This document shows positions 1,633 through 23,073 of a DNA stretch of 64,000 bases, in pieces. Under the pieces are notes generated by a model. It was not told the DNA's origin. It made no database searches and saw only the letters and a program-made list of their open reading frames with translations. Every line of letters starts with the position of its first letter. Position 1 is the stretch's first letter. Both the position numbers and the translations under genes were made by a program. This DNA is from Patescibacteria group bacterium (GTDB lineage: Bacteria; Patescibacteriota; Minisyncoccia; UBA6257; 02-FULL-45-10c): positions 9,922 to 73,921 of the forward strand of contig JAGWYA010000004.1 of NCBI GenBank assembly GCA_018969615.1, given 5' to 3'.

Positions 1633-3015
1633 TTACTCCTTCGGAAGGACGAGCGGACCCAGTAGTGTGTCCTCTATGATATATCCTACCGTGTCCAGTT
1701 CCTCGCGCAAAGCATCGGCCTGGATAAACTGTTTATGACTTCGAAGCGACTCCCGTTCCTTCGCTTTCTTCATGATCGCCGCGGGGACGCGCGGCTTCTT
1801 TTTAAGCCCTAATCCGAGGATTCCTAGCTTTTCTACCAACAGATCGCTGATCGCCTTTGCATCGGCGGCAGACATGGTCCACATCTGCGGCTCAACGGCA
1901 TTGAGGAGGCTGAAAAGCGCACCCAGGGCGTCCGGTGTATTGAAGTCATCGTCCATCGCAGCGGTGAATTTCTCCTCAGCGGTTTTGAGCATGTTTGTGA
2001 CTTCGTTTCCGGCACTTCCTTTTTTGCGCTTAAGGGCAAGACGTGCAAGCGTATGCCGGAGATGGGCGAGCGAGCTTGCTGCCTGAGCCGCCGCCGCTTC
2101 GGAATAATCGATCGGGGAACGATAGTGGTGCGAAAGCACGAGCATGCGCAGTGTTTCGGAAGCATGGTGTGCAAGAAAATCGTTGATCGTAATGAAATTG
2201 CCGAGCGACTTTGACATCTTCTCGCCGTTCACCAAAAGGAAGCCGGTATGCATCCAGATCCGGACGAACGGTTCTTTGCCCGAAGCTGATTCCTGCTGCG
2301 CGATCTCCGCTTCGTGGTGGGGGAATTTCAGATCAGCGGCCCCGCCGTGCAGATCGTATTGCGGACCGAAGAAGTGTTCGGAGATCGCCGTGTCTTCAAT
2401 GTGCCATCCCGGCCGTCCGGTGCCCAGCGGCGTTTTCCATTTCGGTTCGCCCGGCTTCGAATATTTCCATAGGCAGAAGTCGCCAGGATTCTTTTTATTC
2501 GTGCTGGTATCGATCCGGCTTACCCCGTCGCTTGCTTGGGCTGCCGTGCGGCGGGAGAGCTTGCCATAGGAAGGAAATGTTGAGAGATCGAAATACCAGC
2601 CGTCATCCGGGATCTCGTAGGCATGGCCGGTATCAATGAGTGTTTGAACCTGCTTGACGATGTCGGGAATGAAGTCGGTCGCGCGGGCATACATGCTTAC
2701 GCTGGTGACGCCGAGCTGTTTCATATTTTGATGATAGGAACGTTCAAGCTCCCGCACCAGTTTTTTCCAAGCGGTCTTTTGCTGAGCCGCCCGGTCGATG
2801 ATCTTGTCATCGATGTCGGTGATATTCTGAAGATAGGTGACTTCGCGTCCGCGTGCGCGGAGATAGCGGACGATCGCATCGAACGCGATATAGGTGCGGG
2901 CATGGCCGATATGCGCATGGTCATAGACGGTCGGACCGCAGACAAAAAGCCGCAGCGGATCGTGGTCGGGAAGCGGTTCTTTTTTTCCGGAAAGCGTGTT
3001 GAATGCCTGAAGCAT
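1633..3015 (-). CDS. cysS: Cysteinyl-tRNA synthetase
   Basis: 460 aa. Class I HIGH motif (CGPTVYDHAHIGHARTY) and KMSKS motif (KMSKSLGN). CysRS architecture. Confidence 0.93.
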   Translation of the reverse strand: MLQAFNTLSGKKEPLPDHDPLRLFVCGPTVYDHAHIGHARTYIAFDAIVRYLRARGREVTYLQNITDIDDKIIDRAAQQKTAWKKLVRELERSYHQNMKQLGVTSVSMYARATDFIPDIVKQVQTLIDTGHAYEIPDDGWYFDLSTFPSYGKLSRRTAAQASDGVSRIDTSTNKKNPGDFCLWKYSKPGEPKWKTPLGTGRPGWHIEDTAISEHFFGPQYDLHGGAADLKFPHHEAEIAQQESASGKEPFVRIWMHTGFLLVNGEKMSKSLGNFITINDFLAHHASETLRMLVLSHHYRSPIDYSEAAAAQAASSLAHLRHTLARLALKRKKGSAGNEVTNMLKTAEEKFTAAMDDDFNTPDALGALFSLLNAVEPQMWTMSAADAKAISDLLVEKLGILGLGLKKKPRVPAAIMKKAKERESLRSHKQFIQADALREELDTVGYIIEDTLLGPLVLPKE

Positions 3016-3133
3016 GTTTCAATTTTACTATATATTTGGATATCCCGCTAACATAAAACATTAAATACAAACCCTTGAAATTCTATATATTAAAAGATAA
3101 ACTTTGTATTAGTTCTCTAATGAAGGGGATCAA

Positions 3134-3493
3134 ATGAACGAAGCGAGTTTCAATGACATCTCGGCAAGAGTAAATAATTTATTGAATCATTTCAAAATCG
3201 GATCCCGTGTTTTGGCATTGATGTTGAAAGTTTCCGAATCCACGGTGAGGCGCGCGCGAAATGGAAAAGGCGGCTACAGATTATCGGAATTAAAAAGATT
3301 CGATAAATTAGAAAAAATGGTACGGGAAACTCCCAATGTTTTTGTTCCCGGAGGATTTGGTGAATGGTTTCGTGATCCGAATGAGTGCCTCGGCGGCTTA
3401 TCACCATTGGATTGCATTTTAAAATTTGATGAAAAAGGAATGGATCACGTTGCTGGTCTCTTAACGGGTATCAAATACGGTATCCCTTCGTAA
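3134..3493 (+). CDS. Xre-family antitoxin-like protein with a C-terminal DUF2384 (MbcA/ParS-type toxin-binding) domain
   Basis: 119 aa. N-terminal HTH-like segment (LKVSESTVRRAR). The C-terminus EWFRDPNECLGGLSPLDCILKFDEKGMDHVAGLLTGIKYGI matches the W.r.PN..LGG..PL..l....G...V..LL..i..G signature of the Xre/MbcA/ParS antitoxin C-terminal domain. GGGGA ribosome-binding site upstream. Confidence 0.6.
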   Translation: MNEASFNDISARVNNLLNHFKIGSRVLALMLKVSESTVRRARNGKGGYRLSELKRFDKLEKMVRETPNVFVPGGFGEWFRDPNECLGGLSPLDCILKFDEKGMDHVAGLLTGIKYGIPS

Positions 3494-3506
3494 CCGGCCT
3501 AAGAGC
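3484..3506 (+). terminator. Rho-independent terminator (CCGGCctaagaGCCGG followed by T6)
   Basis: Hairpin plus T-run directly after the stop codon of the 3134-3493 gene. Confidence 0.55.
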
Positions 3507-3568
3507 CGGTTTTTTATTTTAGCTTTTAATCTTTACTTTCGACTTTTTACTTTCGACGTTCGACTGGC

Positions 3569-4477
3569 TTATATCCACCCTTTCTTGCGGAAGAAGAAGA
3601 GGACGAGCGAGGTGCAGAGAAGGACAATAAAGAAGGTAAGCGCAAAAACGGCAAGGCTCCCGTCGGTGAATTTATCGACGGCGGGGACGGTGAAGAACGC
3701 GGTCGTCAGCACGAGCGGGAAGGTAAGGAAGGCAAGAATGGTGAAGCGCTGCATGACGCTGTTCGTTTTTGCATCCAGAAGCTGTGCGTTGGTCTGTTCA
3801 AGCGCATCGACGGTCTCTTTGAAGTTGTCGAGGAGCTGCATGATCTTGAGGTGATCGCCGGCAAGGTCCGAGAAGTAGATCTTGATCTGTTCATTCCAGA
3901 ACTTTCCGCCCACTTCGCGGAGGGATTCAAGGATGATCTCCTGCGGCTTACTGATGATGCTGTAGTCGAGGATGTCGCGCTTGAGATAGGAGATCTCCTC
4001 AAGAAGCTTCCGTTCTTCGCCCTGGAAGAGATCTTTCGTGAGCTGAGAGACATTCTCTTCGATATGGCGAAGCTGCCGCTGGGAGAAGAACAGGATCTCT
4101 TCAATAAGGTAGTAGAGGAGCCGTCCGGTGTCCTCGCCGAGGGCGCGGTCCTTGAAATGCGGATCGTTGCTGAGACGGCGCCAGAAGTTGTTCAGCGGCT
4201 CAAGGTCTTCATAGTGGACCGTGATGATCTTATCCTTGGTGATCAGAAAATCAACCTCGCCTTTGCGCGAGCTTTTGATGTTCTTGTCATAGATCGGCAG
4301 GTGATAGGTGAGATAGAGGTATTTCTCATACGGTTCCACGCGGGAGCGCGCAGAGGTATGCAAAAGCTCATCGAGAATGATCGGATGGAACTTGTGCTGT
4401 TTCCGGATGAACTCAATATCCTTTTTGGTCGGGTTCTGGACGTCGATCCAGGTGAATTTCCCTTTGATGATCCTCAT
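3569..4477 (-). CDS. CorA-family divalent cation transporter-like protein lacking the canonical GMN motif
   Basis: 302 aa. The N-terminal region fits the CorA pattern (TWIDVQNPTKKDIEFIRKQHKFHPIILDELL...YEKYLYLTYHLP). Two C-terminal transmembrane helices. The inter-helix loop reads VPAVDKFTDGS rather than YGMN. Confidence 0.65.
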   Translation of the reverse strand: MRIIKGKFTWIDVQNPTKKDIEFIRKQHKFHPIILDELLHTSARSRVEPYEKYLYLTYHLPIYDKNIKSSRKGEVDFLITKDKIITVHYEDLEPLNNFWRRLSNDPHFKDRALGEDTGRLLYYLIEEILFFSQRQLRHIEENVSQLTKDLFQGEERKLLEEISYLKRDILDYSIISKPQEIILESLREVGGKFWNEQIKIYFSDLAGDHLKIMQLLDNFKETVDALEQTNAQLLDAKTNSVMQRFTILAFLTFPLVLTTAFFTVPAVDKFTDGSLAVFALTFFIVLLCTSLVLFFFRKKGWI

Positions 4478-19654: not shown

Positions 19655-20173
19655 ATGAAAAAAACAGAACGAACCTTAGTGCTTTTGAAGCCGGATGCGG
19701 TCCAGCGGAACTTGGCGGGTGAGATCATTAGCCGATTTGAAAAGGCCGGCTTGAAGATCGTGGCTATGAAGCTGGTGCTTCCGACCGCCGATCAGGCGCG
19801 GACCCATTACCAGATCAATCCGAACCTGCCGGAAAAGATCCTTACCCATTTGGTCGCTTTTCTGACCGCCAGCCCGGTGGTTGCGATGGTGCTTGAGGGA
19901 AATAAGGCGATCCCGGTCGTGCGCAAGCTGGTCGGCTCTACCGAGCCGCTGCAGTCCGCTCCGGGTACGATCCGCGGCGACTATACGCTTGATTCGTATG
20001 ACCTTGCCGATGCGGACGGCCGCGCGGTCCGCAACCTTGTCCATGCGTCATCCAGCCTGGAAGATGCCGAAAAGGAAACCACCGTATGGTTTACCAAAGA
20101 TGAGATCGTGGACTACAAGAGCATCCGCGAGCAGATCATCTACGATGTGAATTTGGACCATATTCTTGAGTAA
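19655..20173 (+). CDS. ndk: Nucleoside diphosphate kinase
   Basis: 172 aa. NDK motifs (ERTLVLLKPDAVQR; the NLVHASSS region). Confidence 0.88.
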   Translation: MKKTERTLVLLKPDAVQRNLAGEIISRFEKAGLKIVAMKLVLPTADQARTHYQINPNLPEKILTHLVAFLTASPVVAMVLEGNKAIPVVRKLVGSTEPLQSAPGTIRGDYTLDSYDLADADGRAVRNLVHASSSLEDAEKETTVWFTKDEIVDYKSIREQIIYDVNLDHILE

Positions 20174-20180
20174 AGAAAAA

Positions 20181-20213
20181 CCCCTCCGACTTGAGTCGGA
20201 GGGGTTTGTTTCT
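20181..20213. terminator. Bidirectional terminator CCCCTCCGACttgaGTCGGAGGGG with flanking A/T runs (CCTCCGAC...GTCGGAGG family)
   Basis: Read directly. Lies between the convergent genes ndk and the NDT-like gene. Confidence 0.6.
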
Positions 20214-20670
20214 ATCGGCTTTCGATCCTCCCTTTCCAGCCTTGCCTCGCGGCGTAGGAAGTCAGGAGCATGCGGAGGTCGCGGATGCCTTGGCCGAGCT
20301 CGGTCTCCATCATGAGGTTCCGGCAGCCGAAGACCTTGGCGAACAGGAAGGGTCGGTATCGCCGATCGCCCATAGGGATCTCATTGACGAAAATGACCGG
20401 CTTGTTCTGTCCGAGGGCGTATCCCATCTCCATGAACAACGGAAAAGGGAGCGGGTTATCTTTTTCAGCATAGCCGAATGTGATACTGGCATGGTCGCAC
20501 CGCATGCGGTCCATAGGCCCGTAGGCTTCGGGGTCGCTTGTTTTATTGTCCCGCGGATCGTTCCACGTGACGATCTTTTCATCAAAGAGATCTTTGCAGG
20601 TTTCTTTGACGAAATCCTGCCAGTTGCTTCTCATGCCACCAGCGAGATAGACATCGATCGGATTGATCAT
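20212..20670 (-). CDS. Nucleoside 2-deoxyribosyltransferase-superfamily protein (DNPH1/Rcl-like N-glycosidase candidate)
   Basis: 152 aa. N-terminal VYLAGGM Rossmann start and a GYALGQNKPVIFVNE segment resemble the NDT/DNPH1 fold. Confidence 0.5.
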   Translation of the reverse strand: MINPIDVYLAGGMRSNWQDFVKETCKDLFDEKIVTWNDPRDNKTSDPEAYGPMDRMRCDHASITFGYAEKDNPLPFPLFMEMGYALGQNKPVIFVNEIPMGDRRYRPFLFAKVFGCRNLMMETELGQGIRDLRMLLTSYAARQGWKGRIESR

Positions 20671-20719
20671 AATGCCTCCTGTGAGGATCTGAGAAGAATA
20701 TAAACTAAAATACAGTTAT

Positions 20720-20763
20720 TGTCAAAATAAAAAATACCCCCTCCGGCCGAAGTCGGAGAGGGC
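20720..20763 (-). terminator. Terminator CCCCCTCCGGCcgaaGTCGGAGAGGG preceded by an A-run (T-run on the minus strand), downstream of the HIT-like gene
   Basis: Same palindrome family as 20181 and 37579. Confidence 0.5.
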
Positions 20764-20771
20764 ATGGTTGA

Positions 20772-21167
20772 TCAGTAGGTGACCGCGAGCTCGGCCCGCA
20801 GATGTTGATTGGAATGACGGTAGTTATCCGAGACGTTGATCTTGTGAGATCCGTCCTTCCAGATGCGCATGGGGTCGTTGTCGCACGCCCCTTTGAAGTT
20901 CCTCAGACAATATTCCCCGACTTTTCCAAGGAATTCAGCGGCCTGAAGACAGAGATCCTTGTTTTCCCTGAGTTTCGCGTACGTGGTCAGATGGACCTTC
21001 GGAACGACGACGATCATTGCCGGTTTCTTAGCGTTGTCCGCGATCAGCGCGATGAAGTGTTTCGAATCCAGGATGGCCGTCATCTTAGGCCGCTCCATCC
21101 CGTAGACCATGGCGCATTGTGCGCAGCCTCTTCGCGGATCCTCCTTCTGCTTCTTTTTCTTTTTCAT
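20772..21167 (-). CDS. HIT-like fold protein with a degenerate histidine triad
   Basis: 131 aa. N-terminal CAQC...ILDSKHFIALIADNAKKPAMIVVVPKVH resembles HIT, but the C-terminal HxHxH is replaced by HKINVSDNYRHSNQH. Confidence 0.45.
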   Translation of the reverse strand: MKKKKKQKEDPRRGCAQCAMVYGMERPKMTAILDSKHFIALIADNAKKPAMIVVVPKVHLTTYAKLRENKDLCLQAAEFLGKVGEYCLRNFKGACDNDPMRIWKDGSHKINVSDNYRHSNQHLRAELAVTY

Positions 21168-21554
21168 TGTTTCACCTCTGTAGAGTAGCTGCCCATAGCA
21201 TAGCCATAGAGGCGTATTTCTGTCAATTAAAACGGCTTATTTTTATGCACAGCATCCGCGGCAGAGGAGGGGGTAAATATGCTATACTAAAGATGACCAC
21301 TTCGGTGGTCGAGAGATCTCGCTCATTTTCCTAACAAATCGTTAAATTCGGGAGAGCGAATTTCGTAGCGCCGTGGCGCTCCGATGAGCTCACCCACCTG
21401 ATTCATACCAGGGAACGATAGAGCGAGATTTTTTTATCCAAAAAACCTTAGAAACTACCTGTAGTGAGTTTGCCGAACTATTGACTTTTTGTTTCTTTTA
21501 GTGTATTCTATCAACTGTTCTTTGTTGTGCAGAGGTTCCCAAAGGAGCGACTCC

Positions 21555-21872
21555 ATGATGAAACAGCTGGAACGCCGCATTTCGGTCCAAAAGATCGGAG
21601 GAGAGCCGTTGTCGAAGCCGTTCTACATGACCGTGACGCCGCCGACCGGTTCCCAGTGGGTGGGCATCCGCCATGCGCCTTCCGCTGAGAAGATCCTGCA
21701 GGACTACCTGCGGGATACGAACTTGTCCCGGCGGGAGGTCGCCGGCCGTGTGTGTCTGACGCTGCTTCGTCCTCCGAAAGGCAAGGAGTATCTGGACACT
21801 GATCTTACGATCATGCCGAGGTTCTCGTCCAAGGAGGACTTTCTGCGGAAGAACCTCATCAGCGTCTCCTGA
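21555..21872 (+). CDS. Hypothetical protein
   Basis: About 105 aa from the ATG at 21555, with an AAAGGAG ribosome-binding site 7 nt upstream. No recognisable family. Confidence 0.45.
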   Translation: MMKQLERRISVQKIGGEPLSKPFYMTVTPPTGSQWVGIRHAPSAEKILQDYLRDTNLSRREVAGRVCLTLLRPPKGKEYLDTDLTIMPRFSSKEDFLRKNLISVS

Positions 21873-21880
21873 GGCTGTAC

Positions 21881-21920
21881 ATGCCCCTTTTCGCGTTCGC
21901 GCGGGAAGGGGCATTTTTCT
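21881..21920 (+). terminator. Rho-independent terminator (GCCCCTTttcgcgttcgcgcgggAAGGGGC followed by TTTTTC)
   Basis: Read directly. Confidence 0.55.
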
Positions 21921-21975
21921 TGCAAAAGAGAGCCGCTTGGTTTAATTTGGAATCAGTTCATCTTACGGAGGAAAT

Positions 21976-22920
21976 ATGGAACAGACTGGTTCGCAGGCGA
22001 TGATGTACTGTGCGTATCCGACCCGCCTTTGGAAGACTGGCGGCGGCGACCGGATCATCGAGTACGCCCGGCAGAAAGGGTTCGCTCCGGTGAATCCGTT
22101 CAACTGCGGCGACTTTCGCGATTTTGAAGGCGGTCTCGTCGGCCGCGAAGGGACCCTTCAGTGGACGCTGCATCTGCAGCGTGGCTGCTATTGGACGGGA
22201 TACTTCGGTATATCCGAAGGAGTGATGCGCGAGCTGCAGGATCGACTTTGCTGGGACAAGAACCGGCATATCCGGATCTTTTATGAAGACGATGCCGGGA
22301 AGCCGTTCGATCCGCTGTGGCACCAGGAATATGATGTGCTGAAAGCGAAGTACGGCGATCTGCTCGCCGATGTCCGCGGCAAGCATACGCTGTATGCGTT
22401 TGTCGGTCCGCGGGCAGTCGGGAAGACTTACTGGATCGACCGCATCCTTCAGGAACGGCAGGGCATCGGCCGGATCAAGAACACGACGACCCGACCTCCG
22501 CGCAATAATGAGGATCGAGCGTCTTATCGGTTCATCGAGCGCGATGCGTTCATGCTCCTTGCCGCCGCGCATGATTTTCTGGAACACGTCCAATATGAAG
22601 GGCATTTGTACGGCTCTTCTCTTTCGGCGATCAGGACTGCGCTGTGCCATCATGACGGGATTTTTGCAGTGACGCCGGATGGTGCGAAGGCGCTGTACCA
22701 GTGCCGCTATGAGCTGAACGTCCGGTTCGTGCTTTTGAAAACAACCCCGGAAGTACTTCTTAAGAACCTTGAGAAGCGCGGCATCACTGATCCTCAGGAG
22801 CAATTCAGGCTCATTCAGAAAGCTGATGAGTTCACGCTTCCTTCGGAGATGCCGCATGAGACGATCATTTTGAATCGTGACGCATCAGACGCTGAAAAGG
22901 TCTTCGGACTTTTCCGCTGA
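21976..22920 (+). CDS. gmk: Guanylate kinase fused to an N-terminal domain of about 140 aa of uncertain identity (possibly NDT-like)
   Basis: 314 aa. The C-terminal half carries a P-loop (GPRAVGKTY) and the GMP-binding segment TTTRPPRNNEDRASYRFIERDAF...YEGHLYGSS typical of guanylate kinase. The N-terminal half (MMYCAYP...ISEGVMRE) is not found in canonical Gmk. GGAGG ribosome-binding site. Confidence 0.7.
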   Translation: MEQTGSQAMMYCAYPTRLWKTGGGDRIIEYARQKGFAPVNPFNCGDFRDFEGGLVGREGTLQWTLHLQRGCYWTGYFGISEGVMRELQDRLCWDKNRHIRIFYEDDAGKPFDPLWHQEYDVLKAKYGDLLADVRGKHTLYAFVGPRAVGKTYWIDRILQERQGIGRIKNTTTRPPRNNEDRASYRFIERDAFMLLAAAHDFLEHVQYEGHLYGSSLSAIRTALCHHDGIFAVTPDGAKALYQCRYELNVRFVLLKTTPEVLLKNLEKRGITDPQEQFRLIQKADEFTLPSEMPHETIILNRDASDAEKVFGLFR

Positions 22921-22998
22921 GATCGTAAGCTCCCCGCATTGGGGAGCTTTTTATTGTCCGATCAGAAAATATGATGTATCCTTACCTTTGAAATAGAA

Positions 22999-23069
22999 CG
23001 GGCTGTAGTATACCGGTAGTACGCGTCCATGGGGTGGATGTAGACCGGGTTCAATTCCCGGCAGCCCGA
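22999..23069 (+). tRNA. tRNA-Pro(GGG): tRNA-Pro (anticodon GGG)
   Basis: Hand-folded: acceptor CGGGCTG/CAGCCCG, D-arm GTAT-ACCGGTA-GTAC, anticodon stem CGTCC/GGATG with loop ATGGGGT, T-arm CCGGG-TTCAATT-CCCGG, discriminator A. Confidence 0.75.
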
Positions 23070-23073
23070 CAAA

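Follow-up and report, generated by a model that had tools for sequence, protein, structure and literature searches.

The stretch of DNA considered here, referred to below as the window, is a 64-kb piece of contig JAGWYA010000004.1 (assembly GCA_018969615.1), a metagenome-assembled genome (MAG) from the Patescibacteria, or Candidate Phyla Radiation (CPR). Its gene at positions 21976 to 22920 encodes a protein of 314 amino acids (aa) in which a domain with the predicted fold of nucleoside 2-deoxyribosyltransferases (NDT) and of the nucleotide hydrolase DNPH1 is joined to a divergent guanylate kinase (Gmk) domain. Patescibacteria lack de novo nucleotide synthesis and depend on salvaged nucleotides, and little is known of the enzymes by which nucleotides taken up from outside are sorted, repaired and phosphorylated again in them. 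The same fusion recurs in many related sequences, with both halves conserved at positions resembling active sites, and it is read here, tentatively, as a bifunctional enzyme for the salvage or sanitation of guanine nucleotides.

Genes and signals of the locus

All five open reading frames (ORFs) described in the initial annotation were found at the coordinates given there by an ORF listing. NCBI product names at the locus are of the kind 'hypothetical protein KGO95_02715' and 'KGO95_02730 [Patescibacteria group bacterium]'; the earlier description of the host as a small-genome bacterium agrees with its origin in a Patescibacteria-group MAG. The genes and signals are as follows.

19655..20173, + strand: canonical NDK, 172 aa (Pfam NDK and NCBIfam)
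20178..20207, both strands: bidirectional terminator-like hairpin between the convergent NDK and 152-aa genes (13-bp G+C-rich stem, T-rich tails on each strand)
20212..20670, - strand: 152-aa NDT-superfamily-like protein, Nuc_deoxyri_tr2/YtoQ-like (sub-threshold profile matches)
20772..21167, - strand: 131-aa HIT-fold-like protein with the degenerate triad H-L-R-A-E (sub-threshold Pfam HIT match)
21280..21288, + strand: extended -10 promoter-like element TGcTATACT, 5' of the RNA (read from the sequence)
21295..21436, + strand: structured RNA of ~140 nt (covariation; no Rfam family)
21489..21872, + strand: small conserved hypothetical protein, ORF of 127 aa (positional homologues in the related loci L001 and L011)
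21881..21914, + strand: strong terminator-like hairpin, 3' of the small ORF and 5' of the fusion gene (15-bp stem with 9 G-C pairs, then TTTTT)
21976..22920, + strand: 314-aa fusion ORF (ORF listing, ribosome-binding site)
21976..22386, + strand: N-terminal domain of the fusion, residues 1-137, predicted NDT/DNPH1 fold, DUF7768-related (model and transitive homology)
22387..22920, + strand: C-terminal divergent guanylate-kinase-family domain of the fusion, residues 138-314 (Pfam Guanylate_kin)
22927..22949, + strand: terminator-like hairpin 3' of the fusion gene (read from the sequence)
22999..23070, + strand: tRNA-Pro (GGG), directly 3' of the fusion gene (ARAGORN, Rfam tRNA)

The kinase had been described before as a 314-aa protein with an N-terminal extension, which was confirmed, and as starting with MMYCAYP, which was not. 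The length of 314 aa follows from the ATG at 21976 (MEQTGSQAMMY...), and this start is supported because GGAGG is located 5 nt upstream and the short N-terminal tail is kept in homologues, in which G5 is invariant.

The genes proposed to form a nucleotide cluster are thus present, but they do not make up one operon: they lie in both orientations, each with its own terminator-like hairpin, and some of them occupy a site that varies between relatives. Long ORFs on the strands opposite to the genes (20191-20703 +, 21958-22857 - and 21498-21914 -) are shadow ORFs of the real genes. In the related MAG locus L001, the public gene calls include an antisense shadow ORF of this kind (111 aa, 2005-2340 -) and not the HIT-like ORF (1831-2325 +). 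A tRNA gene directly 3' of the fusion gene was observed in at least two lineages, that of the window and that of L008 (170-240 -). Reading the locus as a defence system was dropped, as PADLOC gave no match.

The two halves of the fusion protein

The relatives of the N-terminal domain were identified by an exhaustive HMMER search, which yielded 71 proteins among 1.84 billion cluster representatives; a word-index homology search had returned only 2 fragments. About 20 of the 71 show the domain-kinase architecture (309-331 aa) and many are stand-alone proteins of 120-135 aa. When 47 members of the domain family were scanned against Pfam, DUF7768 was matched in 21 and Guanylate_kin in 19, the DUF7768 gathering score being exceeded by three members (P0058, P0067 and P0045). 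Neither the window protein nor the rest of its fusion clade attains a DUF7768 match directly, and the stand-alone relatives do; membership of the N-terminal domain is therefore transitive, because it is the HMMER homologues, and not the window protein, that match the family. Compared with DUF7768 (PF24963) and the related DUF4406 and Nuc_deoxyri_tr2, to which the stand-alone relatives match and of which phage DUF7768/DUF4406 models are structurally close, the fusion clade is a divergent subfamily that carries a Gmk domain and has so far been seen only in CPR bacteria. In GenBank phages, tblastn with the N-terminal domain gave no match, and a stand-alone relative gave only matches of E~1e-2, to genes labelled 'nucleoside 2-deoxyribosyltransferase'. 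A scan of IMG/VR revealed no relative with the patterns used.

The structure of the N-terminal domain was predicted by AlphaFold (AF2) from a 48-sequence alignment, and the model had a pLDDT of 94.5 and a pTM of 0.88; a single-sequence model of the full 314-aa protein was unusable (pLDDT 35). The domain model consists of four main strands alternating with helices, with a short strand excursion past strand 4, and displays the three-layer α/β fold of the NDTs. Upon comparison with the PDB by Foldseek, the best superposition was that on human DNPH1 (8rpt_B; TM 0.53, root-mean-square deviation 3.3 Å over 101 columns, probability 1.00), followed by Rcl, several nucleoside 2-deoxyribosyltransferases and TIR domains. 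Among the top 30 matches in BFVD (TM ~0.55, probability ~1.0), almost all were N-deoxyribosyltransferases, DUF7768, DUF4406, CMP/hmCMP hydrolases or proteins of the blasticidin-M type (BlsM). Overall, the structural matches had TM values of ~0.5-0.57 with E-values of only 1.8e-3 to 0.1. The suggestion of the initial annotation that the first ~140 aa form a second NDT-like domain is hence supported by the predicted fold and by transitive homology, together with conserved residues spaced as in DNPH1. No significant similarity was found by hhalign between the N-terminal family and the family of the 152-aa protein, so that the two NDT-like proteins of the cluster are not detectably paralogous.

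Residue conservation was counted in 56 distinct full-length fusions that are 35-65% identical to the window protein. Near the start of the domain, Y11 is found in 54/54 sequences, [ST]16 in 56/56 and R17 in 53/56, and P15 is conserved; E51 and R57 are each present in 56/56. Further on, S80 occurs in 54/56, G82 and E86 in all 56, D112 in 54/56 and W115 in 55/56, and the same set is also kept by the stand-alone relatives. In the model, Y11 is placed on strand 1, S80-x-G82 in the loop past strand 3 and E86 in the first turn of the next helix. The arrangement of a strand-1 Tyr and a post-strand-3 Ser-x-Gly-x3-Glu is that of DNPH1, with equal spacing (Tyr24...Ser98-x-Gly100-x3-Glu104). In DNPH1, Glu104 is the proposed nucleophile and is hydrogen-bonded by Tyr24, while the 5'-phosphate is held by Ser98, Gly100 and the post-strand-1 loop Ile29-Arg30-Gly31 (PMC10483697). 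The hhalign alignment also puts the motif of the N-terminal family in the DNPH1 register, without statistical significance; the numbering of the human DNPH1 sequence used for it agrees with PMC10483697.

The N-terminal domain thus has the Rossmann-like fold in common with DNPH1, Rcl and the NDTs (PF05014), but differs from them in lacking significant sequence similarity and an identifiable equivalent of Asp80 of DNPH1, and in having additional invariant residues (E51, R57 and an FDPxW motif) as well as the kinase fusion. The NDTs typically carry Asp at the position where DNPH1 and the N-terminal domain have Ser. This Ser, together with the [ST]-R pair past strand 1, suggests that the substrate is 5'-phosphorylated, as in DNPH1. 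The domain is accordingly predicted to hold a site that binds nucleoside 5'-monophosphates and is probably catalytic.

The C-terminal half was assigned to the guanylate kinases by Pfam (Guanylate_kin, residues 138-305, E=2.2e-14, 54 bits against a gathering score of 25.2) and can be aligned over its full length to yeast guanylate kinase (1ex6/1gky, E=1.6e-12). With NCBIfam TIGR03263 it scores 63.8 bits, which is below the equivalog cut-off of 160.45, and NCBI calls the protein hypothetical. PHROGs matched the kinase half only, through phrog_1815 'guanylate kinase'. For this half (22381-22920), it was observed that phrog_1815 gave 88 bits (E=1.7e-24) as against 54-64 bits for the Pfam and TIGRFAM models of cellular Gmk, the libraries being not strictly comparable.

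In comparison with canonical Gmk (PF00625, TIGR03263, yeast Guk1), which has ~190-210 aa, the fusion bears an extra N-terminal domain of 137 aa. The P-loop GxxxxGK[ST] is present as G144-PRAV-G149-K150-T151 (K in 55/56 fusions, T in 53/56), and T171, R173 and R176 of the TTRxPR motif (TTR173xxR176) are found in 56/56, as are Y184, Y212 and S214, with E203 in 55/56. The residues R173, R176, Y184, E203, Y212, S214 and R268 correspond to R38, R41, Y50, E69, Y78, S80 and R135 of the yeast enzyme. Differences from canonical Gmk are family-wide as well: S34 is replaced by N169, D98 and D100 by A231 and T233 (followed by P234), and R131 by N264, while the position of yeast R146 (R278 in the window protein) is variable, with E in 24, K in 13 and R in 7 of the 56. 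Ser34 and Asp100 of the yeast enzyme (1GKY) are residues that contact guanine. The pattern suggests that the kinase half is a divergent, probably active nucleoside monophosphate (NMP) kinase of the Gmk family. Both halves of the fusion, as judged from the 56 sequences, are under purifying selection at positions resembling active sites.

Relatives, neighbouring genes and an upstream RNA

The fusion family comprises ~50 clusters at 90% identity among 5.8 billion proteins. A profile search recovered 49 clusters at E<=1e-20, 46 of them of ~300-354 aa, which were drawn from NCBI, JGI, ENA and Logan assemblies; where clusters carry names, these are Patescibacteria-group and Candidatus Wolfebacteria MAGs. 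Two GTDB genomes with the fusion, labelled Candidatus Saccharibacteria, were recovered by a search with a 2-sequence alignment, and a search of the GTDB genomes and IMG/VR with a further alignment (A7) gave no related loci.

In relatives of the window, the gene order is aspartyl-tRNA synthetase (AspRS), NDK, an accessory slot, the RNA, the small ORF (in some), the fusion, L28, DnaG and RpoD. In the window, L001, L007 and L010, the NDT-like and HIT-like genes occupy the accessory slot. In L006 (603-1061 +) and L009 (1075-1542 -), a Nudix hydrolase (GGK...REEVGLE) replaces the pair, and the slot between NDK and the RNA and fusion thus seems to vary in which genes for nucleotide housecleaning it carries. 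The accessory proteins evolve fast, with 29-31% identity between the window and L007, compared with 85% for NDK and 89% for RpoD. In distant CPR genomes, where the fusion is ~44% identical, it has GatB on one side and L11/NusG on the other, and dCMP deaminase, thymidylate kinase, Nudix proteins or an HD phosphohydrolase are encoded close to it. Conserved proteins of 170-181 aa (MRPLVICCSQRFK...GYVG.NT.GEV) were also observed close to the fusion in two such genomes (L016 10973-11485 -, L017 11960-12505 -). They were considered as a further NDT-like fold, which their motif pattern resembles, and this was set aside as they have no Pfam match.

Beyond the fusion clade, the N-terminal-type domain is met in several other arrangements. 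It is fused to a phosphoribosyltransferase in P0066 (L012 1751-2674), next to which an FAD-dependent (HI0933-like/FAD-depend_C) gene is located (2671-4053), and in P0055 a DUF7768-like domain is fused directly to an FAD-dependent protein; this partnership with a phosphoribosyltransferase and an FAD protein is a second recurrent one. A tandem duplicate of the domain is found in P0029. In L003 (2361-3851) and L004 (1717-3207), a stand-alone domain of 126 aa convergently overlaps two tandem P-loop kinases of the AAA_17/AAA_18 type (187 and 182 aa), which is an unfused version of the domain-kinase pairing. Another stand-alone copy lies two genes from a gene of the nucleoside/AMP-phosphorylase type. 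The recurring link of the domain is to nucleotide metabolism.

Among the genes upstream of the fusion in the window, the NDK call is secure. The protein is canonical, matching Pfam NDK with E=1.5e-43 over profile positions 1-135 of 135 and the NCBIfam NDK equivalog models with E=1e-45; its catalytic His motif NLVHAS is readable in the sequence, and it is 85% identical to the copies in L001 and L007. The NDT-like assignment of the 152-aa protein is supported at a level below the curated threshold: Nuc_deoxyri_tr2 was matched with E=9.7e-4 and 19.9 bits against a gathering score of 30, and 5/6 homologues have the same sub-threshold match. The family is small, with only 6 homologues among 5.8 billion proteins, and the window protein is 31% identical to the L007 copy. 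Y8 and E81, the latter in an NDT-like F-M-E-M-G-Y motif, are invariant, and the N-terminal VYLAGG..W motif aligns to YtoQ 8of6 (E=0.011-0.022); papers on YtoQ had nothing on function. A conserved protein of ~78-90 aa (...YTY.ELLEAF...KK.DRDP.DWIGHYSK) was seen to adjoin the 152-aa-type gene in L001 (2889-3149 +), L007 (8379-8615 -) and L010 (980-1249 +), and it is absent from the window.

The 131-aa protein had been described as a HIT protein with a degenerate triad. The HIT assignment has support from a Pfam score under the gathering score (E=5.3e-3; 17.8 bits against 21.5), and with a 4-sequence profile of the family, the top three PDB matches were all HIT hydrolases (6d6j with E=0.0028, 4egu and 5uvm; E=0.0028-0.024). 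The family conserves a CxxC and a P..H motif, and the CxxC together with a 'P..LviPk.H' core aligns to these Hint-type structures. In the HIT superfamily, the canonical triad is HxHxHxx and the central His is the nucleophile in Hint and Fhit. The triad reads HxHxS in L001, HxHxK in L007, HxHxE in L010 and HxRxE (H-L-R-A-E-L-A) in the window, where Arg takes the central position; as this copy lacks the central nucleophile His, the term degenerate HIT is correct. The small ORF of 127 aa had no match in Pfam, NCBIfam, PHROG or PADLOC. ORFs in the corresponding place in L001 and L011 share 25-30% identity with it, and L006, L007 and L008 lack it. Translation probably begins inside the ORF, at the M of 21555 or 21627, for a product of ~80-105 aa.

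The structured RNA occupies the gap between the HIT-like gene and the small ORF. Its parts are a hairpin (P0), a closing helix of 13 bp (P1) with a U-tract behind it, and a three-way junction in the interior. It was found in eight loci including the window, in every one of which that extends far enough it is located 5' of the fusion gene, or of the small ORF and the fusion, on the same strand (the contig of L010 stops just downstream of the RNA). Four of the loci came from a metagenome pattern scan, with fusion proteins as divergent as 42%. The RNA together with its -10 element spans the following positions.

Window: 21280-21436 (+)
L001: 1593-1749 (-)
L006: 1129-1295 (+)
L007: 9743-9898 (+)
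L008: 1371-1528 (-)
L009: 838-1004 (-)
L010: 159-315 (-)
L011: 1517-1672 (-)

The promoter-like element TGnTATAMT is kept in all loci whose sequence covers it. RNAalifold predicted six helices with compensatory changes at 18/44 pairs; 97.7% of the alignment cells pair, compared with 39-49% in slid-partner controls, and the observed covariation was attained in 0/500 shuffles. The strand of the RNA is fixed because of its G-U pairs and of the covariance-model scores, which are 153-172 bits on the strand given for the RNA and 17-29 bits on the opposite one. No match was found in Rfam 15 at the gathering score or at E<=10, and nothing overlapped the RNA in L008, L010 and L011; identification as SRP (signal recognition particle) RNA, 6S RNA or a known riboswitch was rejected, since there was no Rfam match and no characteristic motifs were seen. 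A conserved single-stranded CAUUUUCCU in the RNA could pair with downstream AGGGAA or Shine-Dalgarno sequences.

The RNA is either an independent small RNA or the leader or riboswitch of the fusion gene. Independence is favoured in the window because the small ORF is flanked there by a promoter-like site of its own and by a strong terminator; in L007 and L008 the RNA is ~70-110 nt from the fusion start. From its covariation and lack of an Rfam family, it is a candidate new small RNA or riboswitch and a probable new motif.

Possible functions of the fusion

The analysis shows the domain identities, the fold, the residue conservation, the recurrence of the fusion and the gene neighbourhoods, while the substrate, the chemistry and the coupling of the two domains are inferred. 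The preferred reading is a bifunctional enzyme for the salvage or sanitation of guanine nucleotides, and we give it a probability of roughly 0.45. According to it, the product of the 314-aa gene would be a nucleotide enzyme with two activities, passed on vertically within several lineages of the Patescibacteria (CPR). Tyr11, Ser80-x-Gly82-x3-Glu86 and [ST]16-Arg17 of the N-terminal domain would bind a (deoxy)nucleoside 5'-monophosphate, and the domain would attack the N-glycosidic bond through a 5-phospho(deoxy)ribosyl intermediate linked to Glu86, as in DNPH1, so that an unwanted or damaged nucleotide may be hydrolysed or its base exchanged. The kinase domain would convert (d)GMP or a close analogue to the diphosphate and the adjacent NDK would make the triphosphate, and the two domains together would be a node at which guanine nucleotides are salvaged and checked for quality, the organism being one that depends on nucleotide import. 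In the same neighbourhood, the genes for the 152-aa NDT-like and degenerate HIT-like proteins, and for the Nudix hydrolase of relatives, would be fast-evolving, exchangeable accessories for nucleotide handling.

Several observations weigh against this proposal. Residues 1-137 of the fusion have no direct Pfam match, the best Foldseek E-value is only 1.8e-3, the family profile matched PDB sequences only spuriously (an apolipoprotein and a dehalogenase) and hhalign with human DNPH1 was not significant, so the residue equivalences to DNPH1 rest on motif spacing and secondary-structure position. No conserved Asp was found at the helix corresponding to the general acid (Asp72 of NDT, Asp80 of DNPH1); the consensus 'C-D' ahead of strand 3 is Y72 in the window and varies as D/G/H/Y across the fusions, and E51 or R57 may replace the missing Asp. 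DUF7768 itself has no known function, and the literature search found no member with biochemical support. The kinase is without the canonical equivalents of D98/D100, S34 and R131 and does not conserve the second LID arginine, and given these missing residues its substrate may not be GMP. Further, a glycosidase acting on NMPs would draw on the same substrate as the NMP kinase fused to it unless the specificities differ. Lastly, the genes are separately terminated in both orientations, and much of the synteny comes from fairly close relatives.

In the main rival, the N-terminal NDT/SLOG-like domain would be a non-catalytic ligand sensor and a nucleotide-derived molecule would switch the kinase allosterically: sensing explains the kinase fusion more easily than a competing hydrolase does, and the missing general-acid Asp and the TIR and ThsB-type folds among the Foldseek matches point the same way. 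SLOG-type domains have been widely proposed, and shown for ThsA, to sense nucleotide ligands. Sporadic SLOG-guanylate kinase fusions of phages were read as sensors in a comparative genomic study of viral proteomes, namely of NAD+/ADPr derivatives in conflict systems (Iyer, Burroughs, Aravind and co-workers 2022, PMC9503650). The outline architecture of a SLOG/NDT-superfamily domain with a guanylate kinase is shared with these, the likeness being drawn from their description, but the CPR family is chromosomal, has core-gene neighbourhoods of a housekeeping rather than a conflict-system character, and keeps a catalytic signature of the NDT/DNPH1 type. A pure binding site would have no need to retain the invariant Tyr and S-x-G-x3-Glu, and the stand-alone copies of ~125 aa and the phosphoribosyltransferase fusion fit an enzyme better than a regulatory module, which leaves the sensor somewhat unlikely. 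The same residues count against a plainer alternative, that the protein is simply the housekeeping guanylate kinase of the lineage with a degenerate structural or oligomerisation appendage that has no ligand role. The gene is apparently single-copy among core genes (AspRS, NDK, L28, DnaG and RpoD, and elsewhere GatB, L11 and NusG) and NDT-fold proteins are obligate oligomers; a separate canonical gmk, the existence of which had been left to be checked across the genome, was not detected by tblastn in the 64-kb window, nor was any second Gmk-like sequence. On the other side, the polar residues Y11, E51, R57, S80, E86, D112 and W115 are near-invariant across sequences that are only 35-65% identical, and stand-alone homologues conserve the same N-terminal residues, so that an inert appendage is improbable.

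It is also conceivable that the kinase half acts on a different or modified purine NMP made or selected by the N-terminal domain, in a non-canonical nucleotide pathway. This would account for the family-wide N169, A231, T233 and N264 at yeast Ser34, Asp98, Asp100 and Arg131, for the score far below the equivalog cut-off and for the label hypothetical given by NCBI; yet the equivalents of Glu69, Ser80, Tyr50, Tyr78, Arg38 and Arg41 are all invariant, and the neighbourhood is one of core genes with no base-modification genes nearby, which makes such a pathway quite improbable. An artefact, in which two genes were joined by a frameshift or misassembly, has only the unusual architecture in its favour and is refuted by the recurrence of the fusion: the 56 distinct full-length sequences, of independent assembly and source, share one collinear architecture and conserve the linker (R134 in 54/56, GDxL...LRG), and there is a single ribosome-binding site and start. 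The reading as a bifunctional salvage or sanitation enzyme can be carried further, to an N-terminal domain that is a new base-exchange or N-glycosidase enzyme at the nucleotide level and feeds its own kinase, for example by making (d)GMP from other (d)NMPs and guanine or by removing damaged guanine nucleotides, with the upstream RNA as a new class of riboswitch that senses a nucleotide-derived ligand and controls the fusion gene. This extended version is regarded as a long shot.

With respect to what was known before, the fusion is an uncharacterised variant of known enzyme families and not a new kind of system. In the literature searched, DUF7768 is not mentioned, and nothing relevant was found on NDT-Gmk fusions or on Patescibacteria salvage with Gmk; the extension does not correspond to a known Gmk-associated domain. 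Sporadic phage fusions of SLOG and guanylate kinase are described in one comparative genomic paper (PMC9503650). No paradigm is changed by these results, and the proteins are well-defined and cheap targets for enzymology.

The family is small and conserved across several CPR lineages, and it physically couples a predicted active site of the DNPH1/NDT type to a modified guanylate kinase. The upstream RNA would add a candidate new class of non-coding RNA specific to these bacteria. If the N-terminal domain is a sensor, the fusion would exemplify control of a nucleotide kinase by SLOG in a chromosomal, housekeeping setting. If it is catalytic, DUF7768 would gain its first function and a new coupled step would be added to guanine-nucleotide salvage or sanitation; and if the chemistry is base exchange or N-glycosidic cleavage, it would represent an unrecognised salvage route by which nucleotide pools in CPR bacteria may be rebalanced without de novo synthesis.

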